Source: Candidatus Pacearchaeota archaeon (GTDB lineage Archaea; Nanobdellota; Nanobdellia; Pacearchaeales; GW2011-AR1). From it: a stretch of 64,000 bases of DNA. The DNA lies in the NCBI GenBank assembly GCA_016188895.1, contig JACPGZ010000017.1, positions 2,538-66,537 of the forward strand, given 5' to 3'. A model generated the notes under the pieces. The model was not told the origin of the DNA. It ran no database searches and worked only from the letters and a program-made list of their open reading frames with translations. Positions 12,346 through 52,239 of the stretch are shown in pieces. Both the position numbers and the translations under genes were made by a program. The stretch's first letter is position 1. The number at the start of each line of letters is the position of its first letter.

Positions 12346-12924
12346 TTATTTTTTCAATGCTTTTCTGTGTATAATTGTTCTTCCTTGCTTTGCAACGTGC
12401 TTTTGCTCATGGGCTGTTTTTTCAGCTGTTTTCAATCCTGCTTCAATTGTTGCTTCTTTCTTTTCTTTTTCCTCTATCTTTTGTTCTTCTGTTTTTTCAG
12501 GCTTTTCTTCTAATTTCTCCTCTTGTTTTTCTTTTGTTTCCTCTTTTACTTTCTCTGCCTTTTTCTTTTCCTCTTCAGTTTGTTTTTTCCTTTTTTCTTC
12601 ACGAATCACGCGCCATTTTACAGCTTCTGGAATTATGGCAAGCTCTACATTGACTATGTCTTCTTGTTTTTTTGCTTTGACCTTTATTTTTGTGGGTGGC
12701 TTTGAAATGCCTCTAAACCATATTTCTTCATTTAGATATTTGTTAATCTTAACTTTTCTTATGTCCCTGTCTTGAACTTTCATATGCTTTGCTATGAAAA
12801 TTTTAATTGCCTTGATAGCGCGATTTGTTCTTCTATATCTTGGAACTTTAAGCCACTGCTTTCTTAAAGGTATTACATATTCCCGTTCAAGAACAGCTTT
12901 AGGTTTATCTGCCATTTTATCCAA
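12346..12924 (-). CDS. rpl31e: 50S ribosomal protein L31e with a long Lys/Glu-rich C-terminal extension
   Basis: REYVIPLRKQWLKVPRYRRTNRAIKAIKIFIAKHMKV...EEIWFRGISKPPTKIKV is the L31e core. It is followed by ~90 aa of KE-rich low complexity. Confidence 0.8.
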   Translation of the reverse strand: MDKMADKPKAVLEREYVIPLRKQWLKVPRYRRTNRAIKAIKIFIAKHMKVQDRDIRKVKINKYLNEEIWFRGISKPPTKIKVKAKKQEDIVNVELAIIPEAVKWRVIREEKRKKQTEEEKKKAEKVKEETKEKQEEKLEEKPEKTEEQKIEEKEKKEATIEAGLKTAEKTAHEQKHVAKQGRTIIHRKALKK

Positions 12925-13117
12925 TAAACTCCTTTTTTACTCTTCGTGGCTTGAGCTTCAACTTTCTGGTTCTCCAGTTTCTTCTTACTCTTGTTATTGC
13001 AGAAGGATGCACTCTCTTGCCTTTGCCAAATTTTTTTAATATAATCCAAAATGGAGCCCATTTTGTCCTTCTTTCCAGTTTTGCAAGATGAACTTTTTTC
13101 TGATAATGTTTCGTCAT
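12917..13117 (-). CDS. rpl39e: 50S ribosomal protein L39e
   Basis: 66-aa highly basic protein, ...RVHPSAITRVRRNWRTRKLK. Confidence 0.8.
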   Translation of the reverse strand: MTKHYQKKVHLAKLERRTKWAPFWIILKKFGKGKRVHPSAITRVRRNWRTRKLKLKPRRVKKEFIG

Positions 13118-13398
13118 TTTTTATCAGGTTTAGCAAGAAAATCTAAAATATCTTTTGTAACAACCCCTCCTTGTCTTAATTGTTCTAATATTGATGGATA
13201 ATGTGTTCCTATTACTTCTTCTCTATATATCCTATCATCTGCTGAAGCATTAAATCCTAATCTTGCTCTTCCCTTTTTAATTTCTACCAAAGTTATAATT
13301 ATTGGATTAGCATTTTCTCTTAAGATATATATTTTTTCATCTTGCTCTCTTGCTATAACAAGTCCTATTTTGTCAGGATTATAGTTTTCAGATGTCAT
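13114..13398 (-). CDS. CsrA-like small RNA-binding protein (tentative)
   Basis: IGLVIAREQDEKIYI...IIITLVEIKKGRARLGFNASADDRIYREEV resembles bacterial CsrA (LVLSRK..E.I.I....I.V..V.G.QVKLGI.AP....I.R.EI). Start overlaps the stop of the upstream PDCD5-like gene. Confidence 0.4.
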   Translation of the reverse strand: MTSENYNPDKIGLVIAREQDEKIYILRENANPIIITLVEIKKGRARLGFNASADDRIYREEVIGTHYPSILEQLRQGGVVTKDILDFLAKPDKK

Positions 13399-23815: not shown

Positions 23816-23866
23816 ACTTTTTCTAAACAGATATACTTAAAAGTCAATTAAATCCTATGTTTTTAT

Positions 23867-23961
23867 GCAGGAGTGCCAGAGCGGTCAAATGGGCTTGGCT
23901 AAGGCCTATGTAGAAACCAAGTGGCTTAGTGCCTGCGAAGGTTCGAATCCTTCCTCCTGCA
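23867..23961 (+). tRNA. class II tRNA, probably tRNA-Leu (A73 discriminator, long variable arm), with an ~11-nt intron in the anticodon loop; anticodon not resolved
   Basis: Acceptor GCAGGAG/CTCCTGC+A. T-arm GAAGG-TTCGAAT-CCTTC. Anticodon stem CTTGG/CCAAG encloses CTAAGG+CCTATGTAGAA+A. Variable arm TGGCTTAGTGCCTGC. Canonical parsing gives anticodon AAG, which is unusual. Confidence 0.55.
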
Positions 23962-23966
23962 TTGAA

Positions 23967-33473: not shown

Positions 33474-33971
33474 TTATTTCTTGTTTTTGATAATAAGATA
33501 AATAAGAATAACAATTAACATAACAATCAATAATGCCATAACCCACGTAAGAGCCCACAAATTATTATATCTGTAATTCTGCATCATTCCTGAGCCCATC
33601 CCTCCATAACCCATCATGCCTCTTCCCATCATCATGCTCATCATTCCTGTGCTCATTGCATCATGCTCTCCGCAATAAAATGCCTTGCCCATGCTGACAT
33701 GAATTTGTTTCAAACTTGCAGAGCCCTCGCCCCCCATCATCTCGTCCATCTGCTCATGTAACTCGCCAGGATGCATCTGCTCCATGTAATATTCTCCAAG
33801 TATTTCAAGCTGCTCTTCGCTAAGATTGCTACATGATATTTTTTGTTTTATAATTTCTTCAGCTTGAGCAAAATCCTCTTCTCCATGAGCGCTGGCAAAA
33901 ATTGCTATGTTTACTGCTAAGATACCAATTATCAAAAAACTTATCAGATATATTTTGTATTTATTTATCAT
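33474..33971 (-). CDS. Met-rich secreted/membrane-anchored protein, paralog 1 (putative Cu-binding)
   Basis: Signal peptide, HGEEDF..., Met/Gly-rich stretch (MMGGEG...STGMMSMMMGRGMMGYGGMGSGMM), C-terminal TM. ~98% nucleotide identity to 48234..48397 over ~170 bp. Confidence 0.6.
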   Translation of the reverse strand: MINKYKIYLISFLIIGILAVNIAIFASAHGEEDFAQAEEIIKQKISCSNLSEEQLEILGEYYMEQMHPGELHEQMDEMMGGEGSASLKQIHVSMGKAFYCGEHDAMSTGMMSMMMGRGMMGYGGMGSGMMQNYRYNNLWALTWVMALLIVMLIVILIYLIIKNKK

Positions 33972-34213
33972 TGTCTTATGCTTTGAATTATTAAATATAA
34001 TCCTAAAATAAATATTGAAATTACTATCAAAAACCAAAATATGCTGAAAAATCCAAAACCATATCCAAAACTAGACATCATTCCAATTCCGCCAAAGCCC
34101 ATCATGCCTGCTCCAAGCATTCCAAGTGCTGGCAGTGAAATTAATACTAAAATAATTCCTATTATCAATCTGAGTGTTTTATCCTGCATCTCTTTTGAGT
34201 TTTCTTTTGCCAT
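33968..34213 (-). CDS. small Gly/Met-rich membrane protein
   Basis: 81 aa, GMLGAGMMGFGGIGMMSSFGYGFGFF between two TM helices. Confidence 0.4.
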   Translation of the reverse strand: MAKENSKEMQDKTLRLIIGIILVLISLPALGMLGAGMMGFGGIGMMSSFGYGFGFFSIFWFLIVISIFILGLYLIIQSIRQ

Positions 34214-34306
34214 TACTACTATAATTCATTGGAGTTTATAAATATATCGGATTCTGATATATCAAAATATGTAAAGTTTTATATAGTTGCATTATCTTTT
34301 AATATC

Positions 34307-34723
34307 ATGAAAATAAATAGTATAACTAAATTATGCATTCTAGCTCTGATTAATAATGAGAAACTGCATGGATATGAAATTCTTAAAGAAGTAGGGAAAA
34401 AAACAGGGATAAAATTGTCTGCGTCACATGTCTACCCATTTCTGAAAGAATTAGAAAAGAATAATTTTGTTGTTGCAGAGGCGTATGATAGAGGGGGGCA
34501 TGAAAAAAATGTTTATCAAATGACTAAAAAAGGGAAAAGATTTTATAGGAATTTTATGAATCGTTTTTCAATTATGCTAGAATCAGGAATTAAGAATAAT
34601 ATCAAAGAATGCCATCATTGTGGATGTGAGGTATATAAAAATCATTATCATGAAATAATAAAAGGCAAAAGATATATATTTTGCTGTATGCATTGTGCAA
34701 AAGCATACAAGCAGGAAAATTGA
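34307..34723 (+). CDS. PadR-family transcriptional regulator fused to a C-terminal TRASH-like metal-binding domain
   Basis: PadR wHTH (LCILALINNEKLHGYEILKEV...SHVYPFLKELEKNNFV). C-terminal CHHCGCEV...YIFCCMHC. Confidence 0.55.
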   Translation: MKINSITKLCILALINNEKLHGYEILKEVGKKTGIKLSASHVYPFLKELEKNNFVVAEAYDRGGHEKNVYQMTKKGKRFYRNFMNRFSIMLESGIKNNIKECHHCGCEVYKNHYHEIIKGKRYIFCCMHCAKAYKQEN

Positions 34724-34725
34724 AG

Positions 34726-35178
34726 ATGTTTCAGCTAAATAAAGATATAAAAAACTTGTTTGAGAAGTTCCCTTTTGGTTTTAGTATTTGGGAGAGGGAA
34801 GATAATAAAATGTATGCTGTTTATAGAAATGCCATGGCTGACAAGCTGATGGGAACAAAAAGAGAGAAAATGGTTGGAAAAGAATTTGAAAAATGTTGGC
34901 CTGATTCAAAAGAAAGTAAAAAAACAGCGTTCAGGGTTCTTGATGAGGGTACTACGCATAAAGTTGAGGAGTCAAGATTTATCAGTAAAAAAAAGGAAGG
35001 ATTGTTTCGTTTTACTTTAATGAAACTTGATGAAAACATGATTGGAGTTGTTATTGAGCCTTTGAATAGGTGCATAAAGATTAATAGGGACGGGACACAA
35101 TGCTCTAATACATCTGTTCTGGGTAATTTTTGCATGAGCCATGCACTTACTCAGCTGAAGAAAACATCGTTAATCTAA
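34726..35178 (+). CDS. PAS-like sensor domain protein with C-terminal Cys cluster (tentative)
   Basis: FGFSIWEREDNKMYAVYRNAMADKLMG...VGKEFEKCWPD: PAS-like. C-terminal C..C......C...H. Confidence 0.35.
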   Translation: MFQLNKDIKNLFEKFPFGFSIWEREDNKMYAVYRNAMADKLMGTKREKMVGKEFEKCWPDSKESKKTAFRVLDEGTTHKVEESRFISKKKEGLFRFTLMKLDENMIGVVIEPLNRCIKINRDGTQCSNTSVLGNFCMSHALTQLKKTSLI

Positions 35179-35333
35179 ATTTCAACGGCATGTTTTGTTA
35201 TCTCAATATTGCAGGAATGGTGCTTTGTGCACCATTCTTCACATCTTTTGGCTAACTCTTTTGTCTTGTAGAAGAAACTGCATGACTCGCATTGAAAATA
35301 TTTATCTCCGTGTTTGTTTATCTCTTTTACCAT

Positions 35334-40483: not shown

Positions 40484-40677
40484 TATCTATATTCCAATTT
40501 TTTGGCTTTATTTAAGTTTGATATCTGGGCATCGTATTTCTTACAAAAAGCTTCATGCTCTTCTGCTAATTTTCTTTTTTTATATATTAATCTACAAAAC
40601 ATACACCTGAAATATTTTCTGCCTCTTATATTAACTTCTTTCACCATTTTATCACTCCACACAGCACGCCATTTCAT
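40483..40677 (-). CDS. small Cys/His protein (possible zinc finger)
   Basis: 64 aa, FRCMFC...H...FC. Confidence 0.3.
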   Translation of the reverse strand: MKWRAVWSDKMVKEVNIRGRKYFRCMFCRLIYKKRKLAEEHEAFCKKYDAQISNLNKAKKLEYR

Positions 40678-42061
40678 CTAAATTTTGGTCAAAGCTTTGA
40701 GCAACTTTCTTTATCATCTCGCTTAATGTAGGAAAAACATGGACTGTATCTCTGATATCGTAGATTGTCATTTTGTTCTTAATTGCATAAGTGGCTGTTG
40801 TTATTATATCGGCAGCCATTGGTCCAACAATATGAACTCCAATAACGACCTTTGTTTTAGGATCAAGCACCATTCTAATTAAACCACGAGTATCTTTAAT
40901 TGCTGCTGCTTTTTCTACATGGTCTAGTGTTATTGTTCTGCACAAGCAAACGTTATATTTTTTCATAAATTCTTCTTCTGTTATTCCAACTGCTGCAACT
41001 TCTGGAGAAGTGAACACAGCATGGGGAACTTCATTATAATTTATTTTTTTCTCTGCGTTTTCAAACATGTTTAGAATAGCAATATTTCCTTCTTTTGCTG
41101 CTGTTGTTTCAAGAGGCAATAATCCTGTAACATCGCCAGCAGCGTAAATATGCTTCTGAGAAGTTTGCATATACTCATTTACTTTGACAAATCCTCGCTC
41201 ATCAAGCTCGATATTGGCTTTTTCTGTTTCAATAAGTTTTGTATGTGGTTGTAAGCCAGCAGCCAGCATTAACATTTCAGCAGATAAAATATTTTCTTTT
41301 CCATCAATTTTTACATTTAATTCTATTCCGTTTTTTGTTTTCTTTACTTCTTGTATATCTGTTTTAGTATAAATTGTAATTCCTTCTTCTTCCAAATATT
41401 TTTGTAACTCCTCGCCAAGCATTGAATCAAATTTTGGTATAATTCTTTCTGAGCGCTGTAAAACTGTAACTTTAATTCCAAAATGATGGAAAATTTGAGA
41501 AAATTCCATACCAAGTGGACCACCACCAATTATAATTACAGATTCTGGTTTTTTCTTTAGATTGAAAATATTAACATTTGTTATGTAATCAATTTTATCA
41601 ATGCCTTTTATTGCCGGGACAAAAGTAGACGCTCCTGTTGCTATAAGAAAGTATTTTCCTTTGAATGTTTCATTGCCTACTTTTACAGTGTGTGAATCTA
41701 AAAAAGAGGCTAACCCTTCTTTAAAGTCAACATATTCTTGTTTTTCAATAACTTTCTCGTAATTTTTACTTCTAAACTTTTCAACCATTTCATGAGTTTC
41801 TTTTAATGCTTCTATAAAATCAGCTTTGCCTTCTAATTTTATTGCCCTAAACTGACCCCTCAATGCGTAAAAATACTCCTCTCCTTGATGAAGCATTATT
41901 TTTGACGGCACACACCCAACGTTTACGCATGTTCCGCCAAGAGGCAGGATTTTCTCATAGTTTATTAGAAGTGTTTTCTTTTTCAGCTTGTTTGCTGTGT
42001 TTGCTGCTGCAAAAGCCCCAGCTCCTCCGCCAATTATAATTAAATCATATTCCTTATCCAT
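40652..42061 (-). CDS. merA: mercuric reductase-like FAD pyridine-nucleotide-disulfide oxidoreductase (no N-terminal HMA domain)
   Basis: LGGTCVNVGCVPSK redox-active disulfide. C-terminal vicinal Cys pair (MACCVE) typical of MerA rather than Lpd. Confidence 0.7.
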   Translation of the reverse strand: MDKEYDLIIIGGGAGAFAAANTANKLKKKTLLINYEKILPLGGTCVNVGCVPSKIMLHQGEEYFYALRGQFRAIKLEGKADFIEALKETHEMVEKFRSKNYEKVIEKQEYVDFKEGLASFLDSHTVKVGNETFKGKYFLIATGASTFVPAIKGIDKIDYITNVNIFNLKKKPESVIIIGGGPLGMEFSQIFHHFGIKVTVLQRSERIIPKFDSMLGEELQKYLEEEGITIYTKTDIQEVKKTKNGIELNVKIDGKENILSAEMLMLAAGLQPHTKLIETEKANIELDERGFVKVNEYMQTSQKHIYAAGDVTGLLPLETTAAKEGNIAILNMFENAEKKINYNEVPHAVFTSPEVAAVGITEEEFMKKYNVCLCRTITLDHVEKAAAIKDTRGLIRMVLDPKTKVVIGVHIVGPMAADIITTATYAIKNKMTIYDIRDTVHVFPTLSEMIKKVAQSFDQNLDEMACCVE

Positions 42062-42392
42062 CTTTAATCACTCCGCAATTTTCTAGTCTTTCTTTGTATT
42101 TCCGAATGTGTTTATCAAATAAATCAACTATTGGAATTATGGTTTCTTCATCAAGAGAATATTCTCTGAAATTGCCATTTTGGGTTACTTTTACAAATCC
42201 GCAATGCTCCAAACATCTAAGATTATGAGATACTCTGCTTTGTTCAAATCCCGTCTTTTCACATATTTCTGTAACTGTGAGAGGTTTCTTTCTTAATAGC
42301 TGAATAATTTCCAATCTCGTGTAATTGGAAAATGCTTTGAAGAATAACCTGTGAAGATTATCCATCTGATGAATTTGTTGTAGTTTAGGCAT
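42054..42392 (-). CDS. ArsR/SmtB-family metalloregulator
   Basis: HTH ...LTVTEICEKTGFEQSRVSHNLRCLEHCGFV. Translationally coupled to the merA-like gene. Confidence 0.7.
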   Translation of the reverse strand: MPKLQQIHQMDNLHRLFFKAFSNYTRLEIIQLLRKKPLTVTEICEKTGFEQSRVSHNLRCLEHCGFVKVTQNGNFREYSLDEETIIPIVDLFDKHIRKYKERLENCGVIKDG

Positions 42393-42442
42393 ATGATAAA
42401 GTTATCATATAGACTATTTAAATGTTTTGTTATGCTTTAAAA

Positions 42443-42892
42443 TTAAAATTCGCATCCACTTATAGCAGATAATCTCTCAAATGTCTGAACCTGTGGATAG
42501 AATTCGTTATTTATCTCCCATGTTGGTGTAACGCCTATTCCTTTTCTATCGCATAATTCTTTATTCTCTGAACACTTTACATAATTAAGATATTGCTTTG
42601 AATTGCCAAAAAAATTTAATTGCTTTGCTGTATATTGGCAGAAATCATTTCCATATACTACAGCGCCTTTTTCAGCCAGGCATTTTGCAAATGCGTCATA
42701 GTCGCCTGGTTTTTTCATGTATGAAAAAACAGAGGCTACAGAGAATATTCCGATTAATATTATTAATGATACTATCGCATATTTTCTGAAATTTGTTTTT
42801 TTAACTGGAGAAGAATGTTTTGCTTGAGCGTGCTGACTTAAAGCTTCTTCTGAATCAAAGCTACGATTACAAATTTGACATATGCTTGCCAT
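42443..42892 (-). CDS. membrane protein with N-terminal cytoplasmic C2H2 zinc finger, one TM, and an extracytoplasmic thioredoxin-like domain
   Basis: CQICNRSFDSEEALSQHAQAKH (C2H2). TM helix IVSLIILIGIFSVASVF. ...VVYGNDFCQYTAKQ...GIGVTPTW is thioredoxin-fold-like (VKOR-partner type). Confidence 0.5.
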   Translation of the reverse strand: MASICQICNRSFDSEEALSQHAQAKHSSPVKKTNFRKYAIVSLIILIGIFSVASVFSYMKKPGDYDAFAKCLAEKGAVVYGNDFCQYTAKQLNFFGNSKQYLNYVKCSENKELCDRKGIGVTPTWEINNEFYPQVQTFERLSAISGCEF

Positions 42893-42911
42893 TTTTCAAA
42901 AATTTTAATGA

Positions 42912-43073
42912 TTAACGACCGCATCCGCCGCCGCCATATTGGCTTGGCACTGATTGTGGTGCTACTGCAGCTCCTGATATCTTGTCTGAATTGTCATTGC
43001 GCAGACTATTTATACCAAAAACAACTACAGCAAGTATCAATATTACAAGCAAGATAACAACTGTTTTGTCCAT
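42912..43073 (-). CDS. small signal/TM peptide ending in GGGGCGR (53 aa)
   Basis: MDKTVVILLVILILAVVVFG... low-complexity tail ...QYGGGGCGR-stop. Below the ORF-track threshold. Confidence 0.3.
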   Translation of the reverse strand: MDKTVVILLVILILAVVVFGINSLRNDNSDKISGAAVAPQSVPSQYGGGGCGR

Positions 43074-43115
43074 ATTAACCTCCTTTCATGTTTCTCATTT
43101 TAATATATCACATAG

Positions 43116-43547
43116 TTATTTAAATATTTGTTTATTTTTTAATTTATCTTTGAGCAAAAATAACATGCTTAAGAAGACAATGCTACCCCCTATTATCCAG
43201 AAGAATATAGAATAATCTTGGAAAAATGGTGTGCCTGCTATAATTATGCCTGCATTAAGTATTATCATATTTTTTGAGATGCATCTGCTTCTGAAATAAA
43301 ATACTAATGCTGTTGCTAAAAGCAAAAGGGCTGCAATCCAAAAAGGAACAGCTACTTTTTGAAGGAATAACAAAGGCATGCCTACAATTGTTATCCCAAT
43401 AACAGATAGCAGGGCAATAATGCCTAAGCAGACATTATGGCAGACTTGATAGCCTCCTAAGAAGCTCAAAACTCCTGATAATCCACTTGATATTCCAATT
43501 GTTTTTTCTTTTAAATTTGATTTTTTCATCTTAATGATCCTTGGCAA
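43116..43547 (-). CDS. 4-TM membrane protein with CxxxC in TM1 (possible MerT-like metal transporter)
   Basis: GGYQVCHNVCLGIIALLS followed by three further TM helices. Confidence 0.4.
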   Translation of the reverse strand: MPRIIKMKKSNLKEKTIGISSGLSGVLSFLGGYQVCHNVCLGIIALLSVIGITIVGMPLLFLQKVAVPFWIAALLLLATALVFYFRSRCISKNMIILNAGIIIAGTPFFQDYSIFFWIIGGSIVFLSMLFLLKDKLKNKQIFK

Positions 43548-44295
43548 AATCAGTTATTGAATTTAATTGTTGTTCAAGAGAGCCATTTCCATCTGTTATT
43601 AAAATTTTATCTAAATCATTAAAGACATAATTTCTGTAATCTGAAATTTCCTTTCCATTGACATATGCTCTTATTCCTTGTGGAAATTCTAATTCAATGC
43701 TGTCAAAGAGTATCCATAAAGGAACTCCTGTTGCATGCATATGTAAGACACTTGAAGCGTCTTCTTTGTTTAGATTATCATCTAAATGAAGAAAACTACT
43801 TTTCATATAATATTTTTCATTTGCAAAATTTATTGTATTTCCATTAACATATACTTTAATATCAGCATGAATATGCTCTGAGCCTAAAATTCCTATAGTT
43901 GATTTTGAATCCATATTGCATTGCATTTGCCCTGAATCTATGCATTGTTCAACAGGCATGCCACAAGCATCACATTTTCCATCATTATCTTTGTCCATAA
44001 ACTGCTTTGCAAGCTCTATGTCAAAGGGTGTAAGAGACATGCGACTCATTCTTCCTGCCATAGGATTAGAAGCTGCTCCTGTAATCTTTTGCGCTAAGAA
44101 TAAAGATTTAGAGGCATAAAAAAGTGCTGATATGGCTACTATGAATACGAATATTATAAAGCCTGTAATTAATTTATCAGCCATGCTTTTATTATCTTTA
44201 ACTGTGCTGACTACTTCCTTATTTTCCATTACTTCATTTTTATCTTGGATTTTTTCTTCTGGAATTATCATTTTATCCTCTTGATTCATATTCAA
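43531..44295 (-). CDS. membrane-anchored protein with extracytoplasmic Cys-rich segment and HxH motifs
   Basis: N-terminal TM. DGKCDACGMPVEQCIDSGQMQC, then EHIHADIKVYVNG...VLHMHATG...WILFDSI. Paralogous pattern to the 44273 gene. Confidence 0.4.
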   Translation of the reverse strand: MNMNQEDKMIIPEEKIQDKNEVMENKEVVSTVKDNKSMADKLITGFIIFVFIVAISALFYASKSLFLAQKITGAASNPMAGRMSRMSLTPFDIELAKQFMDKDNDGKCDACGMPVEQCIDSGQMQCNMDSKSTIGILGSEHIHADIKVYVNGNTINFANEKYYMKSSFLHLDDNLNKEDASSVLHMHATGVPLWILFDSIELEFPQGIRAYVNGKEISDYRNYVFNDLDKILITDGNGSLEQQLNSITDFAKDH

Positions 44296-44941
44296 TAACT
44301 ATTTCGTCTTTGTCTTGCATAATATAATTCTCAAATTCTGTGTTTTCTTCTCCACCAACATACATCTTTAATTCACCTTTGTCTGTGCAATAATCAAAAA
44401 TACATGAAGAACTAAACTGCTTATCCCACACATAAAAGAAATATCCTAAAGTAAGTGTTTCTGGTTTTTTGCTTGGATTATTATTTTCTAAGTGTATAGT
44501 GCCATCGCTCTCATGTGTATGAGTTGGGGACATTCTCATTCCGCTAAGACCTGTATCTATAATTTTTCCAATAGTAATTCCTATTCCTACAGGAATTAGT
44601 TGTTCATCTCCGTCAATAATAATCTTTAATTTTGGATGCCAATGCACTGCCCCTTGAGGAATCTTCTGGAGACTTTCATTAGATAAGATTATATTAAGTC
44701 CGTCATTATTGTTATTTGAAGTTTTATCTTTTCGCACAAGATATACTCCAAAAATAATGAGTATTATAACAATGGCAATTATCCAATTTCTTATCTTCTT
44801 TTTGTTTTGCGGAAAAAGTGAAGTTGATGGTTTAATGGATTGTTTTGTATCTCCATAATGTTTTGCTTTATTATGCATTGCTAAAGCATCTGCTGTTGAA
44901 AATTCTCGATTATTGCATTTTTCACATTTATAATCTGCCAT
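44273..44941 (-). CDS. membrane protein: N-terminal C2H2 zinc finger, one TM, extracytoplasmic His-rich (HxH) domain
   Basis: YKCEKCNNREFSTADALAMHNKAKH (C2H2). TM NWIIAIVIILIIFGVYLV. AVHWHPKLKIIIDG...MSPTHTHESDGTIHLE...LGYFFYVWD. Confidence 0.45.
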   Translation of the reverse strand: MADYKCEKCNNREFSTADALAMHNKAKHYGDTKQSIKPSTSLFPQNKKKIRNWIIAIVIILIIFGVYLVRKDKTSNNNNDGLNIILSNESLQKIPQGAVHWHPKLKIIIDGDEQLIPVGIGITIGKIIDTGLSGMRMSPTHTHESDGTIHLENNNPSKKPETLTLGYFFYVWDKQFSSSCIFDYCTDKGELKMYVGGEENTEFENYIMQDKDEIVIEYESRG

Positions 44942-44943
44942 TT

Positions 44944-45417
44944 TTATGATGTATCTACATTAGTACCATATGGATGAATTAATTTCCATCCCTGAATGAT
45001 ATCTCCTTGCCTGAATTTAAGTGTAAATTTATCGCTAAATTGTCTTTTGCTTCCTTCGCTAAGAATAAATTCAACTGAATATTCAACTGATGCTGTTTCT
45101 CCATCATTTGAAATCTCTTTTATATTTATGACATTGATATTATCTATTCCTTGCAAGGCTGCAAAATTCCTAAATGTGGCTAAATCTTTAGCATTAGGGT
45201 CAAGCTTTTTGAAGCCATCTGAAAAAGTTGCGTACATATTTGCGTAATCCTTATTATTCCATGCTGTGAAATACTGCCTTACAACTTCTTCTGGTGATGG
45301 AAATGTATATGATTCTTGCTGGAGCTTCTTATTTCTTATTGTTACAAAAATGACGCCTAAAACAAAAATAATCATTATAATTATTAATCCAAAATACATT
45401 ATTTTTTTATTGAGCAT
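44944..45417 (-). CDS. NTF2/SnoaL-like domain protein with N-terminal TM anchor
   Basis: VRQYFTAWNNKDYANMYATFSD is an NTF2-like signature. Confidence 0.45.
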   Translation of the reverse strand: MLNKKIMYFGLIIIMIIFVLGVIFVTIRNKKLQQESYTFPSPEEVVRQYFTAWNNKDYANMYATFSDGFKKLDPNAKDLATFRNFAALQGIDNINVINIKEISNDGETASVEYSVEFILSEGSKRQFSDKFTLKFRQGDIIQGWKLIHPYGTNVDTS

Positions 45418-46531
45418 TATCTTCTACTACTTGGTTAGTAGCTAAATTTTTGTAAGTTCCTATAACCTCTGGACTCCGCATAACAAACCATCCATCACTC
45501 TCTACACTGCCAACATCATCCCATGCATTTACAAATGAGATATATACAGATGCGTCTGGCGAAACAATGATTATTGGAACTTTTGTTATTTTATATTTAG
45601 AAATTAACTCCTTGCCTTCTTTTGATGTTATATCATATGTATTTTCTTTATCTATATACATTCCAAATCTAAGAAGTATTTGTTTATTTATTGAGAGATC
45701 ATAACATTGTTGGCATGAACTATCTTTTAGCATTATTAATTCAACAAGCCCTGATATTTCGCCTGATGTTAGATTTCTATATGGAGGAACTGTAGAATGG
45801 ATTGCATAGAATCCATTTTTTTCTCTTGCATTTAGTTGAATTAGTAGTTGCTGTATGCTTGGATAGAAATTAATGTCTTGAGATATTAAAATAGCTGGGA
45901 CATGTTTTATATCAAATTTTTGGATAAGCTCTTGTCCTTCTTGCGAATTATATTCAACAAATCTCTCTTCTTTTACAAAAACACCTCCTTGTTTCAAACT
46001 CTCTGAAAATCCTGTTAGTGAAATACATTCTTTGCAAGAAGAATCAATAACATTAGTAATAGATACCTCGCCAACAATCTTATCAAGGGCATTATCATAA
46101 TAAGGTGGGCTTATTGATGTATATATTACGACATCTTCTTTTACATCGCCAATCTCATGCATATAGTTCATAACTTGCTCTTTATTAATCTCTCCGTTTA
46201 TAATTATTGTTGGCAATTTTTCAATAGAATATTTTTCTATCAGCTCTTGTCCTTCTAGAGAATTAATCTCAATTTCTTGCTCTTTTGTTATCTTAACATT
46301 TTGCTTTTTAAGGTCATTCAGTGCATTTTCAACATCATAGCAATTAGCGCAATCTGATAATAATTTTATTACTTCTAATTCAGCTGGTTTACTTTGTTCT
46401 TCTGCAATCTCTTTAGAATCTTTAACCTTGCTTATTCGTGATTGAAGTATAAAAACATTAATTACAGAGAATAAAACAACAAATATCATCACAACATGCA
46501 AGTATCTACTAATAAAGTTTTCTTTCTCCAT
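45407..46531 (-). CDS. membrane-anchored protein with three tandem thioredoxin/glutaredoxin-like domains (CxxC x3)
   Basis: Three ~110-aa repeats, each with CxxC (CANC, CKEC, CQQC) and a cis-Pro-like motif (KLPTII, HVPAIL, KVPIII). N-terminal TM. Confidence 0.55.
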   Translation of the reverse strand: MEKENFISRYLHVVMIFVVLFSVINVFILQSRISKVKDSKEIAEEQSKPAELEVIKLLSDCANCYDVENALNDLKKQNVKITKEQEIEINSLEGQELIEKYSIEKLPTIIINGEINKEQVMNYMHEIGDVKEDVVIYTSISPPYYDNALDKIVGEVSITNVIDSSCKECISLTGFSESLKQGGVFVKEERFVEYNSQEGQELIQKFDIKHVPAILISQDINFYPSIQQLLIQLNAREKNGFYAIHSTVPPYRNLTSGEISGLVELIMLKDSSCQQCYDLSINKQILLRFGMYIDKENTYDITSKEGKELISKYKITKVPIIIVSPDASVYISFVNAWDDVGSVESDGWFVMRSPEVIGTYKNLATNQVVEDNAQ

Positions 46532-46544
46532 CTTTTATATTAAA

Positions 46545-46751
46545 TCAGCACCCGCCAACCATTGATGGAAGACTCTGCAGGTTTGTTGGAACTGACTGGC
46601 TTGCGCCAGAGCTTGATGGTGCTGACGAGCTAGGACTGCTTGAAACTACAACCTTTGCGCTACTAAGACTCACTAACTGGATTGTTTGTATTGCTGTGGC
46701 TAAAAGCAATATACCAATCAAAGCAATCATCAATAGTTCTTTTCTTTCCAT
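46545..46751 (-). CDS. small signal/TM peptide with Ser/Pro-rich tail ending in GGC
   Basis: MERKELLMIALIGILLLATAIQ...SSPSSSAPSSSGAS...SMVGGC-stop. Confidence 0.35.
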   Translation of the reverse strand: MERKELLMIALIGILLLATAIQTIQLVSLSSAKVVVSSSPSSSAPSSSGASQSVPTNLQSLPSMVGGC

Positions 46752-46776
46752 TTTTGACCTCCTATAAATTTAGATA

Positions 46777-47547
46777 TCATACTAGAGCCTCCTGTATAAT
46801 TCTTTCAATTGTGCCTTTTGGATACCATAATGCATACCATCTCGCCATCTCGCCATAAATCTCTTCATCAGAATATTTATCTCCATAATTTTTAATAAAC
46901 CATTTCGCCATGCCTTGTGCTGCAATTGAGTGAGCACATCCGCAGTGTGTTATGATTGTTGGGTTTTTTGGAGAGCCGCAGCAATAATCACATGTAAATG
47001 AGTTTACTATCCTGTTCCATCTTTCTTGTTCTGAAGAGCTTAATTGCAATGAGCGATAAGTTCCCCAGTTCTTTTGAGAGGTAATTGGATCATCAAATGA
47101 TACTTGCGCTTCTTGTCCGTAAAATGGAGTGCCTGTTGGAACAACATTATTTAGCAAATCTTGGACAGAATCGCCTGTTGATGGTGTTGTTGATAACTCA
47201 CTTATTGTTGGGATTGGTTTTACCTTGCTTTTATATCCTGATATAGCTGGCTCTTCGCCCTGTGCAAGAGGCATTGGCTTTAATGTGATTTTTGAGCCAT
47301 ATTCAAACTTTCCTAGATTGACAGTTCCTCCAATAATTCCAGAGGCATATGCCCTTGGTATTAAAAGCTGATTTATAAAAAGCAAGATAGTCAAAATAAC
47401 CACTCCAGCTAAAATATAATTATTTCTAAATAAAAATGGTTCTGTATCTTGCGATACCCTATGGAATGGGCTCGTGCTCTGTGTTTCCGATGCCCTACGG
47501 AGTGGGCTTTCTTCCATTTTTTCTTCTTTTGTTATGTTGTTTTCCAT
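46777..47547 (-). CDS. membrane-anchored protein with C-terminal CxxCC...HCxCxH cluster; N-terminus encoded by the dispersed repeat
   Basis: FTCDYCCGSPKNPTIITHCGCAHS. N-terminal ...ESPLRRASETQSTSPFHRVSQ comes from the repeat. TM ILAGVVILTILLF. Confidence 0.45.
   Translation of the reverse strand: MENNITKEEKMEESPLRRASETQSTSPFHRVSQDTEPFLFRNNYILAGVVILTILLFINQLLIPRAYASGIIGGTVNLGKFEYGSKITLKPMPLAQGEEPAISGYKSKVKPIPTISELSTTPSTGDSVQDLLNNVVPTGTPFYGQEAQVSFDDPITSQKNWGTYRSLQLSSSEQERWNRIVNSFTCDYCCGSPKNPTIITHCGCAHSIAAQGMAKWFIKNYGDKYSDEEIYGEMARWYALWYPKGTIERIIQEALV
47457..47507 (-). repeat. dispersed repeat copy (two units, minus orientation) inside the 5' end of the 46777..47547 gene
   Basis: Reverse complement cccactccgtagggcatcggaaacacagagcacgagcccattccatagg. 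It is translated as ESPLRRASETQSTSPFHRVSQ. Confidence 0.85.
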
Positions 47548-47548
47548 T

Positions 47549-48103
47549 TTACTTGTTTAGTATATTGCAAGCCTCGCAGTGCCCTGTATAAATACTTTCT
47601 GCTTTAAGGAATAAGGCAAGCCCTAATAATCCTATTGATGATATCTTGAAAACAGATGAGTATTGGGTTAAGAAAGATGTTGGAATATTAAGAAGGGTAG
47701 AGCCAAGTGCAACAACCACAATTCCTTGGCAAACAGGGCATATTGCTCCAAAAAATCCAGCTAATCCTCCGCCAAATCCACCAATAGATGATATAGAAGA
47801 TGAGCGAGTAATATTTTTCTTTTCATATATGAAAAGAACTATGAGAATAGATGCAAATATTGTTATTGCTGCAATAAACACATAATCAAATATACTGACA
47901 GCTGACATCCTGCTAATTCCAAAATCTATGACAGGGATTCTCCATAAACCATATAAAAAGGAGTATGATACTAGAAAAATTAAGATAGTGATGAGCAGAT
48001 TTTTCCTGTGTTGCTTCTCATTCAAAATACTAATAGCATGTTTTATTGCTCCTTCTCCTTTAAATTTGTCTTTCATTTTCTTTTGTTTGTTTTCAATAGC
48101 CAT
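47549..48103 (-). CDS. CPxC-motif multi-TM protein, paralog A
   Basis: GGFGGGLAGFFGAICPVCQGIVVVALGSTLL in a TM helix, C-terminal HCEAC. Confidence 0.45.
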   Translation of the reverse strand: MAIENKQKKMKDKFKGEGAIKHAISILNEKQHRKNLLITILIFLVSYSFLYGLWRIPVIDFGISRMSAVSIFDYVFIAAITIFASILIVLFIYEKKNITRSSSISSIGGFGGGLAGFFGAICPVCQGIVVVALGSTLLNIPTSFLTQYSSVFKISSIGLLGLALFLKAESIYTGHCEACNILNK

Positions 48104-48576
48104 ATTATTATTGCTATAACAACGAGGATTATTAGTATTAATACAAGCAAGACTATAGGATTATTATAATTTGCTCCTTGTTGATTAAACATGCCTTCCA
48201 TCATGCCACTAGAACCTATCATCCCTCTGTTCATCATCATGCTCATCATTCCTGTGCTCATTGCATCATGCTCTCCGCAATAAAATGCCTTGCCCATGCT
48301 GACATGAATTTGTTTCAAACTTGCTGATCCCTCGCCCCCCATCATCTCGTCCATCTGCTCATGTAACTCGCCAGGATGCATCTGCTCCATGTAATACTCG
48401 CCAATTACTTCGAGCTGATCGTCTGTGAGCTGGTTGCATTGAATTTTGCTCTTAATTAACTCTTCTGCCTTTGCAAAATCTTCTTCGCCATGAGCGCTTA
48501 CAATTGCAATTCCTATTAAGAAGATTGCAATAAATACACCTATTTTTGCTTTCATTTTATTCTTATGTTTTATCAT
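48073..48576 (-). CDS. Met-rich secreted/membrane-anchored protein, paralog 2
   Basis: Same architecture as the 33474 gene. Central 56 codons nearly identical at the DNA level. Confidence 0.6.
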   Translation of the reverse strand: MIKHKNKMKAKIGVFIAIFLIGIAIVSAHGEEDFAKAEELIKSKIQCNQLTDDQLEVIGEYYMEQMHPGELHEQMDEMMGGEGSASLKQIHVSMGKAFYCGEHDAMSTGMMSMMMNRGMIGSSGMMEGMFNQQGANYNNPIVLLVLILIILVVIAIIIWLLKTNKRK

Positions 48577-48716
48577 ATTACTATTTTAAATATTAATAAA
48601 TATCTATATATAACTTTTAGGGTTGAAACCATCATAGCTAAAAGGCTTAAAAACCTTGTATATGCAGAAAGGAACGTTTATAAGCCAAATTAATTAATAA
48701 GTTAATTAGTATTTTG

Positions 48717-49223
48717 TTAAAAATTCTCTAAAAAATGCAATGTATAGGTTTTTCCTTTTTTTATTCTTTTAACAAGTTTTTTCTTTTCAAGTTGAGTTAC
48801 AATCTGGCTTGTTTTTGCTTTTGATAAATCAATGCGCAATTTTAATGTATTCTGGGTTATACCATCTTGCTCTCTAATTGATTTTAATGCTTTTTTTTCA
48901 TATTCATCAAGCCCTTTTGAAAGTATAGAGAATTTTTCCTCGCTAAGTTTTTTATTTTTATCATCTTCAAGTCTCTTCAAAATGCTTTCTTCTCCTTTAG
49001 AAAAGAACACAAGATAAATGCCAAGTGAAAGCAGGAATGCTAGTATGCCTATTACTGCATTTGATAATGTAAAGTAGTTTTGTATTCTTATACATTGAGA
49101 ATTTTGAGGAAAACATCCTGAATTGGTGCCGAGTACATTGAGTCTGCTTATAATGCCAATTATAATAATCCCGAGAAGAACACTAAGGATAATAAGTGCT
49201 ATACCTAACCTTTTATTTAGCAT
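48717..49223 (-). CDS. membrane-anchored winged-helix (MarR-like) transcription regulator
   Basis: Two N-terminal TM helices with a CxxxxxxC loop, then ...ALKSIREQDGITQNTLKLRIDLSKAKTSQIVTQLEKKKLVKRIKKGKTYTLHF (wHTH). Confidence 0.5.
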   Translation of the reverse strand: MLNKRLGIALIILSVLLGIIIIGIISRLNVLGTNSGCFPQNSQCIRIQNYFTLSNAVIGILAFLLSLGIYLVFFSKGEESILKRLEDDKNKKLSEEKFSILSKGLDEYEKKALKSIREQDGITQNTLKLRIDLSKAKTSQIVTQLEKKKLVKRIKKGKTYTLHFLENF

Positions 49224-49522
49224 TTACTTAGATTAATTATCAAAATATATAAACTTTATGCAATTATGTTTGTTGAACAGTAATGATACCATGTTGTTCA
49301 TTTCAATTGAGTTTGAGTTTTACTTGGGGGTCGCTGTCAGGTGGCTCCGCCACATATTGCCTCACTTCGTGAGAAATTATGTTTGAATAGCATGCTTTGT
49401 GATTTCAATATTGCAGCTATGATGCTCCTTGCACCACTTTTTTCATTTTTCTGCCCATCCTTTTTCTTTGTATGCAAAATTACATTCAGGATAGGTATAC
49501 AATTTGTTTTTTGTGACTTTGG

Positions 49523-50038
49523 TCATTTACACCACCTACATTTATTCTCTATAGATTTTGAAGTAGTGTATATAGATAGTATAATCAATGCAATTGCCAA
49601 CAAGAGAATCGGTGTTCTATATTCAACTATGAATGTTGTTGCAGTGCTTCCTATAACAGCCGCGATAATTACAAGGCAAGCAGGACAACCTGCAACCGCG
49701 CCTAATCCGCCAAAAAATCCGCTGGATATGCTGCCACCTGCCTCAACTATTGGTATTGGTTGAGCTTTATTTGTCTTAATTTCTTTTCGCAGATAAAGCT
49801 GCATGGCTATCCACATACCAAATAAAATTGTTAGTAGAATAATGAGGGTAACTTGTAAGGAACTGTTGGATAATACCGATTTAATCATCCCTATATCAGT
49901 AAGGATCTTCGGAGTGATAAAAGAAAATGAAATAATATACAGTGATAGCATTACCAATGCCGAGAATACAGCTATAAAGAAATATCTCCTTTTAGATAAG
50001 ACAATATACATGACTTTCAATATATTTATCTCTTTCAT
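49523..50038 (-). CDS. CPxC-motif multi-TM protein, paralog B
   Basis: SGFFGGLGAVAGCPACLVIIAAVIGST and C-terminal CRWCK. Paralog of the 47549 gene. Confidence 0.45.
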   Translation of the reverse strand: MKEINILKVMYIVLSKRRYFFIAVFSALVMLSLYIISFSFITPKILTDIGMIKSVLSNSSLQVTLIILLTILFGMWIAMQLYLRKEIKTNKAQPIPIVEAGGSISSGFFGGLGAVAGCPACLVIIAAVIGSTATTFIVEYRTPILLLAIALIILSIYTTSKSIENKCRWCK

Positions 50039-50060
50039 ATTCTCATATTCATCATTCTAC

Positions 50061-50204
50061 CTTAAGCAAGTTCTTTTAATAGTAATTTTCGTGCTTCTGG
50101 AGAAAGCAGCTTCTTCAACTCTTTTGTACAAATGCAAATACAACATTCGCAACAAGGGCATTTTCCAAAATTGCAGCATGGTTCTCTTTTCTCTTTCTTT
50201 TCAT
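50061..50204 (-). CDS. metallothionein-like Cys-rich small protein (47 aa)
   Basis: MKRKRKENHAAILEKCPCCECCICICTKELKKLLSPEARKLLLKELA. RBS GGAGGT upstream. An ATG 4 nt upstream in another frame gives MNEKKEKREPCCNFGK... which would join this frame if the A5 run were A4. Confidence 0.4.
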
Positions 50205-50277
50205 TCATTTTCTTTACCTCCCTTATAATAGTATATTTTATATACTTAATGAATTATATAAACTAGGCAGTTTCCAA

Positions 50278-50634
50278 ATGGTAAGCATAATAACAACAGA
50301 CGAAAATTGTAAAATGAAATCTGATAGTGGCCATTGCCCCAGACCGTTAGAATCTGTTTCTGATTTTCTCAGTAAGAAATGGGCAATCTCTATTATAATA
50401 ACTATAGGTAATTTTGGTAAATTAAGATTTAATAACATCATAGCAAGACTTGAAAATGCTACTCCAAAAATTCTTACCGAACGCTTGAAAGAATTAGGAA
50501 AAAATGGCATAATTCAACGGCGTTATTATAATGAGATACCTCCGAAAGTAGAATACTCTCTGACAAAGGTTGGAAAAGATTTAATGAATTCTCTTCGTCC
50601 TCTAATTAATTGGGCTGAGAAGAGAATTAAATAA
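50278..50634 (+). CDS. HxlR-family transcriptional regulator
   Basis: CP...SVSDFLSKKWAISIIITIGNFGKLRFNNIIARLENATPKILTERLKELGKNGIIQRRYYNEIPPKVEYSLTKVGKDL. Confidence 0.7.
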   Translation: MVSIITTDENCKMKSDSGHCPRPLESVSDFLSKKWAISIIITIGNFGKLRFNNIIARLENATPKILTERLKELGKNGIIQRRYYNEIPPKVEYSLTKVGKDLMNSLRPLINWAEKRIK

Positions 50635-50670: not shown

Positions 50671-51336
50671 ATGCATAAAGAAGCCGGAGTTGAAGATTAC
50701 TTAAAAGACATTGCTGGTCACAGGATTCTTACCAGAGATGAGGAGATTGAACTAACAAATAAGATTAGAAATGGCGATAATTATGCAAGAGAAACAATGA
50801 TTAATTCTAATCTTAAATTAGTGTTTAGTATTGCAAAACATTATGCACACAGAAAGATTGGATTAAATGATGCAATTGAAGAAGGCAACAAAGGCTTGAT
50901 TAAAGCTGTTGAGAGATTTGATCCCAGCAGAGGATATAAATTTTCTACATATGCTACATATTGGATTAGACAAGCTATAGAAAGGGTGTTAGGGCAGGAA
51001 GAAAAAAGGCTTAAAAGATTAGAGTTTATTTTTTATAATATGGAAGATAAGAATAACTTTGTAGACAGCATAGCTGATAATTCTCAAAGCCATGAAGAAG
51101 AGTTATTGAAAAATGAAAGATATTCTATATTAGAAGATTTGATGAATATGCTTGATGACAGAGCCAGGACAATTATTGAAATGAGATACGGACTTAATGG
51201 CTACCATCCTATGTCGCTTGTTGAGATTGGAAAGAGAATATATTTATCTAGGGAGAGAGTAAGACTAATTCAATATGAAGCTGAGCAAAAATTGAGGGGA
51301 ATTGCTAAAAATAGGGGTTTATCTGATATTGTTTAG
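50671..51336 (+). CDS. bacterial-type sigma-70 family RNA polymerase sigma factor (regions 1.2/2 and 4 only)
   Basis: Region 2: [39 protein letters not shown] (compare E. coli RpoD [39 protein letters not shown]). Region 4.2: [28 protein letters not shown]. Confidence 0.75.
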   Translation: [221 protein letters not shown]

Positions 51337-51435: not shown

Positions 51436-52239
51436 CTATGAGAAAAAAGAAGAGACGGAATCTGGTGATGCAATGATGTCTTCTGGCGAAGATATGTAAC
51501 CGGGAATAAAGGTTAAATTATCTGGGCTGAATTTTGAAATATCCTTCAAGTCTAGTGGTGTAACTATTCTTGATGACAAAGAATTAAGTGTATATGGCAA
51601 TCGTATCAGATGGATTCTGCCATGACTAACCCATGGATCAATTGCAAATTTTTTATATTTCTTGTTCAAAGAATTGCGCTGTTTTAATGTCAGGTAATAA
51701 GCATTCTTGTCAAGAACATGAACGTGAGCGCCTCTTCCTGAAAATACAACTTTAACATCGCTGAATTGTTTTTTCAGTTCAAGATAAAAATTATATGTGT
51801 TCTGTATTGCAATTTTTGAGCATGCCTCACAAAAATCATGTGCAGATTTTTTTGCGCATTCCTTGCATTTAATGTTTTCAGGGTCAATGTCAAAAACCAA
51901 TTCCTGGCCAAGATAATTAGTTGACAGATGTGCTTTCTTGAAATCAAAATTTTTAATACATAGATTAGCATCTTTGTATATGTCTCTGTCATAATAGACA
52001 TCTTCTGGCAGATAAAAAATCAATTTTTTCCTAAGCTCTTTTAAAGATAGATTCGGCTTGAAATAAATTAATTTTCCTTTTTTTGATTTGTCTTTGATAA
52101 TTCCAGAGTCTGTTCCGCAGTCAATTGCAAAAAAGCATGGCTTAAATGGAAGCTGATTTAACCATGATTCAACTTTTTTAATATCAAACTCCTTTTCATA
52201 GAATTCTTTTCTCTCTTGAAGAGTTGCTGGGCGGAACAT
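51436..52239 (-). CDS. priS: DNA primase small subunit PriS (archaeo-eukaryotic primase)
   Basis: AEP motifs LVFDIDPE (DxD) and SGRGAHVHV. Zn knuckle CKECAKKSAHDFCEAC. Confidence 0.7.
   Translation of the reverse strand: MFRPATLQERKEFYEKEFDIKKVESWLNQLPFKPCFFAIDCGTDSGIIKDKSKKGKLIYFKPNLSLKELRKKLIFYLPEDVYYDRDIYKDANLCIKNFDFKKAHLSTNYLGQELVFDIDPENIKCKECAKKSAHDFCEACSKIAIQNTYNFYLELKKQFSDVKVVFSGRGAHVHVLDKNAYYLTLKQRNSLNKKYKKFAIDPWVSHGRIHLIRLPYTLNSLSSRIVTPLDLKDISKFSPDNLTFIPGYISSPEDIIASPDSVSSFFS

Follow-up and report, generated by a model that had tools for sequence, protein, structure and literature searches.

Identification of the PEP Gene

The DNA analysed here, referred to as the window, is a stretch of 64,000 nucleotides (nt) from contig JACPGZ010000017.1 (positions 2,538 to 66,537) of the Candidatus Pacearchaeota archaeon assembly GCA_016188895.1. 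A prediction made from the sequence alone (the original prediction) had drawn attention to a very cysteine-rich short open reading frame (ORF) on the minus strand, preceded by a ribosome-binding site and two ATGs 4 nt apart, at 50208 and 50204. All of these elements are present, and the gene that starts at the first ATG is here called PEP:

50062-50208 (stop codon included), minus strand: PEP, Cys-rich small-protein gene, an intact ORF from the first ATG
50216-50222, minus strand: Shine-Dalgarno (SD) sequence GGGAGGT, 7 nt 5' of the PEP ATG, as read from the sequence

The manner in which the two start codons had been connected does not survive inspection. Retranslation of the minus strand from the ATG at 50208 gives MNEKKEKREPCCNFGKCPCCECCICICTKELKKLLSPEARKLLLKELA, a protein of 48 amino acids (aa) and 5.52 kDa with a pI of 8.6 and 9 Cys (18.75%); this frame is uninterrupted, where it had been described as running out of frame. 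The ATG at 50204 opens a frame of merely 29 aa (MKRKRKENHAAILENALVANVVFAFVQKS, followed by a stop) with zero Cys, and the 47-aa product quoted for it is a chimera of two frames. Likewise, the homopolymer described as A5 at 50156-50160 is an A4 at 50161-50164 (context GGAAAATGCCC), positions 50156-50160 reading TGCCC on the minus strand. The fusion product expected from an A4 version is the sequence as it already stands, with 9 Cys where 11 had been counted, and with 7 Cys in the segment CPCCECCICIC where 8 in 11 residues had been reported. The frameshift idea is thus an artefact of a miscount of one base. A contig from a separate assembly (Logan SRR12113430, L004) shows 100% identity along 351 nt and yields the same 48-aa product, although the sample is possibly the same; in an exact-sequence look-up, PEP proved to be called on this short contig and not on the NCBI contig.

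After the PEP core motif, CC-x4-C-x2-C-x-CC-I-C-I-C, comes TKELKKLLSPEARKLLLKELA, with two predicted helices, and the protein has no hydrophobic stretch of membrane-spanning length. An AlphaFold2 (AF2) model computed from a 7-sequence alignment, with a predicted local distance difference test score (pLDDT) of 72.8, places helices at residues 28-34 and 37-47 and leaves the Cys-rich half without regular secondary structure. Such a picture would be expected if the Cys-rich segment needs metal in order to fold and is joined to a small helical hairpin.

Conservation and Selection

Homologues were sought in three ways. A word-indexed search of 5.8 billion proteins returned six PEP homologues of 43-48 aa with 74-86% identity, one of them annotated 'hypothetical protein [Nanoarchaeota archaeon]'. 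A motif pattern combined with tblastn, taking one genome per species, yielded 45 genome loci, labelled as Woesearchaeota, Aenigmatarchaeota, Nanoarchaeota, Iainarchaeum, Parvarchaeum, 'uncultured archaeon' and some 'Methanosarcinales' metagenome-assembled genomes; the whole family spans more than 50 DPANN contigs, Pacearchaeota being among their labels. An exhaustive profile search with a hidden Markov model (HMM) over 1.84 billion cluster representatives added four further small true relatives only, detected no fusion of PEP to a larger protein, and returned two eukaryotic repeat proteins (P0011, P0012) that are spurious matches. The scarcity of additional relatives indicates that the family is narrow and mostly uncalled. 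Gene callers have recorded it in 10 public records; the annotations of the source genome and of the majority of the 45 genome loci lack it, and PEP, being only 44-48 codons long, is systematically missed.

Family members are 38-52 aa long (median 44), and the alignment of 47 sequences is almost gapless. Each of them contains 8-9 Cys, eight of which are invariant across the 45 distinct sequences, and the median number of F, W, Y and H residues per member is zero, the window PEP having one Phe. Conservation extends beyond the Cys motif into the sequence T-K-[DE]-L-K-K-x-L-[ST]-P-E-A-R-K-L-L, and every one of the 47 homologues can be read in one frame without a shift. An SD-like GGAGG or GAGGT lies no more than 18 nt before the start in 42 of the 47 loci.

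Selection was measured over a 35-codon core of the 45 distinct sequences. The proportion of nonsynonymous differences (pN) is 0.17 and that of synonymous differences (pS) 0.85, which is saturated, giving a pN/pS of 0.20; among less diverged pairs the median dN/dS is 0.14. Entropy over the codon positions is 0.57/0.35/1.38. The PEP frame is the best of the six, with 74% aa identity and no stops, against a pN/pS of 0.37-2.2 and stops in 1-44 of the 45 sequences for the other five. PEP is a genuine, conserved gene under strong purifying selection, far beyond chance. Comparison with homologues had been named in the original prediction as a check on the Cys-rich frame, and that frame is conserved in the relatives, as the eight invariant Cys and the pN/pS value attest.

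An ORF on the opposite strand (49803-50228, plus strand, 141 aa) spans all of PEP together with the start of the next gene, MEMB, and is open over PEP in 45 of 47 homologues. It was considered as a gene and rejected as a shadow frame: its pN/pS is 0.37 against 0.20 and its identity 56% against 74%, it has no conserved boundaries, and it overlaps the well-supported MEMB gene. The shadow frame shares wobble positions with the PEP frame and could mislead gene callers.

The Membrane Protein Downstream of PEP

ORFs were called in all PEP loci and the neighbouring genes were clustered. The partner directly downstream is a membrane protein, here called MEMB:

49523-50038, minus strand: MEMB, membrane protein of 171 aa, starting 23 nt past the PEP stop

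MEMB is the next same-strand gene after PEP in 27 of the 45 loci, at distances of -8 to 117 nt, 24 of these being no more than 32 nt; the two genes are closely coupled in translation. Its family members are 147-182 aa long, with four predicted transmembrane (TM) helices and termini predicted to be cytosolic. The third helix (TM3) contains an invariant CPxC (33-34 of 34), and two thirds of the members end in a C-terminal CxxC, present in the window MEMB as CRWCK. The AF2 model of MEMB has a pLDDT of 55, which is insufficient for a fold search.

The window MEMB scores 23.5 bits against the Pfam MerE family PF05052 (cut-off 22.8), over profile positions 16-67 of 75 and including both MerE helices; 15 of 16 MEMB homologues match the same family, with a best E of 1.3e-5, and the match falls in the C-terminal half of the protein. 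MEMB fails the NCBIfam MerE equivalog NF010310, scoring 20 bits where 80 are required, and departs from the MerE architecture of about 78 aa and two TM helices. Given this failure, its size and its four TM helices, MEMB is MerE-like, not MerE.

In one locus (L003, 1734-2138), a Y1 (IS200-type) transposase is inserted between PEP and its membrane partner. PEP identity reaches 80-90% between different DPANN phyla, and the two observations together hint at horizontal mobility of the cassette.

A second small Cys protein, ZnR (38-56 aa, CxxC-x12-13-CxxxC-x5-7-C), accompanies the PEP-MEMB pair in 16 loci and has a weak match to DUF7128 only. Other common neighbours of PEP are genes for glutaredoxin, thioredoxin-like proteins, ArsR, cupredoxin, DsbD_TM and VKOR. 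Further along the same strand of the window lies another membrane protein, which gave no confident family match in Pfam or NCBIfam:

47549-48103, minus strand: membrane protein of 184 aa with a G-rich transmembrane CPVC, recurring in 6 PEP loci

The adjoining ORF at 46777-47547 (minus strand) encodes 256 aa with a C-terminal CDYCCG...HCGCAHS, recurs in 5 PEP loci and has no Pfam or NCBIfam match; we take it to resemble the 'PCYCGC' metal-associated proteins.

The Divergent HxlR Regulator and the Promoter Region

Upstream of PEP, and transcribed away from it, lies a regulatory gene, from which PEP is separated by an intergenic region of 69 bp:

50278-50634, plus strand: HxlR-family (MarR/DUF24-type) regulator, 118 aa (Pfam HxlR PF01638, 83.3 bits against a cut-off of 20.8)
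50230-50246, no strand: palindrome AGTATAT-AAA-ATATACT, the local form of a 19-nt box
50254-50262, no strand: second TATA-like element, TTTATATAA, seen in the sequence only

The placement of PEP divergent from an HxlR regulator and within a metal island, as originally described, is correct, mer genes being found nearby. An HxlR homologue is detected by tblastn at 35 of 48 PEP loci and is the immediate divergent neighbour at 21. The regulator carries an N-terminal Cys pair, with C11 present in 29 of 29 sequences and C20-P21 in 28 of 29 (motif G[YH]CP). Its best NCBIfam matches are the redox regulators RrpA and RrpB, far under their cut-offs.

The 19-nt box, TAGTATAyAAAAGAAACTA, is located at -38 to -42 from the PEP ATG, its centre about 30 nt upstream. 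It occurs in 15 of the 21 loci in which HxlR is divergent and adjacent, a TACT-N-AGTA variant occurs in 3 more, and it is absent where PEP is internal to an operon. Shuffled sequences match in 1.8% of cases against a regular expression that was chosen post hoc. Since a TATA-like core lies inside the box, it is read as promoter plus operator, and it is probably a TATA box combined with an HxlR operator. The second TATA-like element may serve the HxlR promoter.

Mercury Resistance Genes in the Window and in Other DPANN Genomes

MerA has been listed in several DPANN phyla, and archaeal mer operons are ArsR-regulated, often with stand-alone TRASH proteins (PMC8261052, PMC3466566). In the window, genes of this kind are found 8 kb downstream of PEP on the same strand:

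40652-42061, minus strand: mercuric reductase MerA, 469 aa (NCBIfam TIGR02053, 499.8 bits against a cut-off of 454.45, residues 5-469)
42054-42392, minus strand: ArsR/SmtB-type metalloregulator, overlapping the merA start (Pfam HTH_5 55.6 bits, NCBIfam HTH_metalloreg 74.3 bits)

The window MerA contains the CVNVGC redox centre and the diagnostic vicinal Cys pair in its C-terminal ACCVE, and an identical protein is named mercury(II) reductase [Candidatus Pacearchaeota archaeon] at NCBI. It is a core-only enzyme that has no N-terminal HMA domain (NmerA). PEP heads an unbroken array of 15 minus-strand genes, 40652-50208, which ends in ArsR and then MerA. This 'thiophilic metal' array also holds thioredoxin-fusion, DUF4829, C2H2-plus-TM and transmembrane-CxxC proteins, which recur in 5-11 PEP loci.

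Elsewhere, MerA lies no more than 10 kb from PEP in L022, L032, L049 and L054; in the first three the distance is 0.7-4.5 kb and the hallmarks are the same. In an Iainarchaeum locus (L009), genes for a MerT-like protein (CC in TM1) and an HMA-lipoprotein precede the PEP cassette.

A reverse test was made with seven close DPANN ArsR-MerA loci and their 10-kb flanks. The ArsR-MerA pair is conserved in L050-L055, and in L056 another gene stands between the two. Directly 3' of merA, three of the seven (L052, L053, L055) have a MEMB-family protein with 28-30% identity to the window MEMB, SCxxC in TM3 and a C-terminal CDSCKK or CEKCK, and a ZnR-type protein follows merA in L050 and L051. The positions of these relatives make both MEMB and ZnR mer-operon components in these archaea, and PEP is tied to both. 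In L054 the gene order is ArsR-MerA-DSPc-MerT-HMA, HxlR, PEP and a MEMB variant (TCPFC ... SCCQ).

A gene of the DSPc/PTP fold recurs in DPANN mer clusters (L050, 11831-12957; L054, 11415-12550; and upstream of the cassette in L009), and another is found directly after PEP in L001 (3879-4382). To our knowledge, the dual-specificity phosphatase fold has no established role in mercury resistance.

Family Assignment

PEP has no match to a Pfam family at E<=0.1, and seven members of the family have none at E<=10 except a spurious Rpb2_7. NCBIfam, its RiPP (ribosomally synthesised and post-translationally modified peptide) and SCIFF families included, gives no match, and the Protein Data Bank (PDB) gives none either by profile search or by Foldseek with the AF2 model. 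The best PDB match by sequence is E. coli MarR at E=0.55, in which CCICICTKELKKLLS aligns with CAACITPVELKKVLS. This alignment raised the idea that PEP derives from the helix-turn-helix of a winged-helix metal sensor, which was dropped when hhalign put the probability below 1% for both the HxlR and the ArsR alignment.

By composition, PEP lies below the 10 kDa and within the Cys content of about 15-30% used as operational limits for metallothioneins, and it has their Cys pattern of CC, CxC and CxxC with few aromatic or His residues. The original prediction had put PEP forward as a candidate metallothionein or metal chaperone. Composition, an operon shared with a MerE-like protein and the nearby mer genes are in keeping with that suggestion; by sequence, PEP belongs to no known metallothionein family. 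No description of an archaeal or DPANN metallothionein, or of the PEP cassette, was found in the literature covered, from which most subscription journals were absent. PEP would represent a new family of peptides, metallothionein-like or metallochaperone in kind, that is confined to one lineage and has an operon architecture of its own.

A Model for PEP Function

The data presented above have led us to favour, with moderate confidence, a reading of PEP as a cytosolic metallothionein-like protein that binds and relays soft metals. The metal would most likely be Hg(II), with Cd, Cu(I) and Zn as possible alternatives. In the proposed model, the eight invariant Cys would form a thiolate site for soft metals. 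PEP would be co-transcribed with MEMB, which would use thiol ligand exchange to carry metal through the membrane; the transmembrane and cytosolic Cys pairs of MEMB follow the same logic as those of MerT, MerF and MerE. PEP would then accept metal from the cytosolic CxxC tail of MEMB, or give metal to it, with its C-terminal two-helix hairpin as the putative docking surface for this tail or for MerA. In genomes with a core-only MerA, PEP may hand Hg(II) to the C-terminal Cys pair of the reductase, replacing NmerA; in those without MerA, it would act as a sink or buffer. Expression would be controlled by the divergent HxlR repressor: Hg(II) or other thiol-reactive agents would attack its Cys pair, and the repressor would be released from the palindromic box overlapping the TATA element.

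Several observations weigh against this model. Known metallothionein families (Pfam Metallothio*, BmtA/SmtA PF02069) have no significant profile match to PEP; we infer metal binding for a protein that has no sequence homology to known metal binders, and the identity of the metal, the direction of transfer and the regulation are inferred with it. The characterised regulators of the HxlR family, YodB and HypR, sense electrophiles and oxidants and are not known to sense metals. The similarity of MEMB to MerE is marginal and MEMB is twice the size of MerE, and thiol-redox proteins (Trx, Grx, DsbD_TM, VKOR) are numerous among the neighbours of PEP. MerA is within reach at only 5 PEP loci, and in the reverse test PEP is found within 10 kb in just 1 of the 7 MerA loci (L054), which makes it an island companion and not an obligate mer-operon gene. 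In that one locus PEP (12916-13175) is uncalled, lies 1.6 kb from the mer operon and has ACG where others have ATG; the ACG may be a non-canonical start, the mark of a recent pseudogene or a sequencing error.

The neighbouring redox genes give substance to the main alternative, in which PEP would be a thiol-redox or electrophile-stress peptide, either a sacrificial thiol buffer or a CPxC electron donor or acceptor, and not primarily a metal carrier. It would work with MEMB as a membrane thiol-disulfide protein, after the logic of CcdA/DsbD, and would be induced through a repressor of the HxlR/YodB type. An HxlR regulator with distant matches to RrpA and RrpB and with its sensing-type Cys conserved in G[YH]CP is what such a peptide would call for, CPxC is present in both PEP and MEMB, and glutaredoxin, thioredoxin-like, DsbD_TM, VKOR and DSBA proteins are often nearby. 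The arrangement of the Cys argues in the other direction, eight clustered Cys with CC and CxC being typical of metal-thiolate clusters, not of redox dithiols. So does the gene context, since relatives of MEMB are found within ArsR-MerA operons and MerT, HMA and MerA genes adjoin the cassette. Hg(II), too, induces by reacting with thiols, so the kind of regulator cannot tell the metal reading from the redox reading. We regard a chiefly redox function as unlikely.

The conservation of the whole of PEP, including the C-terminal hairpin, suggests a protein-protein interface, and its pairing with HxlR is constant. PEP could on these grounds be a regulatory mini-protein built around structural Zn or Fe-S, whether as a partner or anti-repressor of HxlR or as a non-transport subunit of MEMB, its Cys holding a structural metal or cluster and not cargo; the weak, chance-level matches of PEP are indeed to Fe-S subunits such as NuoI. 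Its Cys spacing is, however, unlike that of ferredoxin (CxxCxxCxxxCP) or of a zinc ribbon, the comparison of its profile with the HxlR and ArsR alignments stayed below 1% probability, and PEP also occurs without an adjacent HxlR, inside operons led by ArsR or ZnR. A role of this kind seems to us quite improbable.

Being small and Cys-rich, and with a radical-SAM gene about 5 kb away in L001, PEP might also be the precursor of a RiPP (thioether/SCIFF-like) or no more than a leader peptide that acts in cis on the gene after it, an explanation that we find barely credible. No maturase (radical SAM, YcaO or LanM-type) recurs among the neighbours of the 47 loci, no NCBIfam RiPP or SCIFF family is matched, and conservation over the whole length leaves no division into leader and core, so that neither a conserved adjacent maturase nor the organisation of a SCIFF, ranthipeptide or lanthipeptide precursor is found. 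The genes after PEP are different or convergent in a third of the loci, and it is therefore not a leader for one gene. Finally, two overlapping frames joined by slippage at an A5 homopolymer, as phase variation or as a programmed frameshift, have nothing in their favour beyond the two ATGs 4 nt apart and are refuted, since the run is A4 and the ORF already intact, the DNA is identical in a second assembly, stops interrupt the +1 frame (pN/pS 1.1) in all but one of the 45 homologues, and the second ATG and the A run are both absent from most homologues, which leaves neither a slippery homopolymer nor a second conserved frame.

The metal-relay reading can be carried to a more specific form, which we put forward only tentatively, as less likely than not: PEP would be the founding member of a DPANN-specific class of metallothionein-like Hg(II) relays, its hairpin docked on a new four-TM transporter, taking Hg(II) from the cytosolic CxxC tail of the latter and feeding a core-only MerA in place of NmerA or MerP, under the first metal-responsive HxlR repressor.

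Comparison with Known Systems

In its proposed function, PEP has its closest analogues in MymT, NmerA and MerP. MymT of M. tuberculosis, which is Cys-rich, has a mass of 4.9 kDa and can bind up to six Cu(I), is likewise encoded by a small ORF that had not been annotated (PMC7558416). PEP resembles it in a mass of roughly 5 kDa, in having been overlooked by annotation, in a very high Cys content with CC, CxC and CxxC and almost no aromatic or His residues, in its cytosolic location and in its position beside a metal- or thiol-responsive repressor. It differs from MymT and from the metallothioneins SmtA and BmtA in showing no detectable sequence or profile similarity to them and in its conserved C-terminal two-helix hairpin. 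It is, moreover, archaeal (DPANN), shares an operon with a membrane protein, and stands next to HxlR and not SmtB, ArsR or CsoR.

The likeness to NmerA and MerP lies in the proposed role, that of a soluble thiol module which takes Hg(II) over from a membrane transporter, at its Cys pairs, and delivers it to the C-terminal CC of MerA. For NmerA, this role is reportedly the subject of Ledwidge et al. (2005), a study cited in PMC8261052. Unlike NmerA and MerP, PEP has no GMTCxxC HMA domain, contains 8-9 Cys instead of 2 and has a different fold; unlike NmerA, it forms no fusion with MerA, and its gene seldom lies beside merA (1 of 7 MerA loci).

MEMB is comparable to MerE, MerF and MerT in combining a Cys pair within a TM helix with a cytosolic Cys pair, and in having relatives directly after merA. 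It differs from MerE in having four TM helices in 147-182 aa, against two in about 78 aa, and CPxC in place of CPC; its role in transport is a prediction. The TRASH motif is CxxC-x19-22-CxxxC, which the PEP motif does not resemble and to which ZnR comes closer than PEP does. Stand-alone TRASH-domain proteins and MerH are small Cys proteins proposed to traffic Hg in the ArsR-regulated mer operons of archaea (PMC3466566).

Other Features of the Window

A second small metal cluster is present at 33474-35333. It contains a Met-rich secreted protein (33474-34037) that is a near-duplicate (paralogue) of the one at 48073-48576, an ORF of 164 aa (34229-34723, plus strand) with a Cys/His-rich C-terminus (HHCGCE...CCMHC), and a ZnR-family protein of 52 aa at 35175-35333.

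Beyond the HxlR gene, the ORF at 50671-51336 (plus strand) encodes a bacterial-type sigma-70 family protein in which Pfam regions 1.2, 2 and 4 are all matched, which is odd for an archaeon. It adjoins the gene for the archaeal primase small subunit PriS (51436-52239, minus strand). ARAGORN finds a single tRNA in the 64 kb, a tRNA-Leu with anticodon aag (23866-23962, 97 nt), which may contain an intron.

Implications

PEP is an example of a conserved, strongly selected gene that annotation has overlooked, and it could find practical use as a soft-metal chelator that is genetically encoded and very small. In the literature covered, eukaryotes and a few bacteria are the only organisms for which metallothioneins are described (PMC12193353, PMC7558416), and if PEP binds metal, it would constitute a gene-encoded metallothionein-like protein family in Archaea. 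No mer transporters are reported for the archaeal operons in PMC8261052 or PMC3466566; metal binding by PEP would add both a transporter and a cytosolic Hg carrier to archaeal mercury resistance with a MerA that lacks NmerA.

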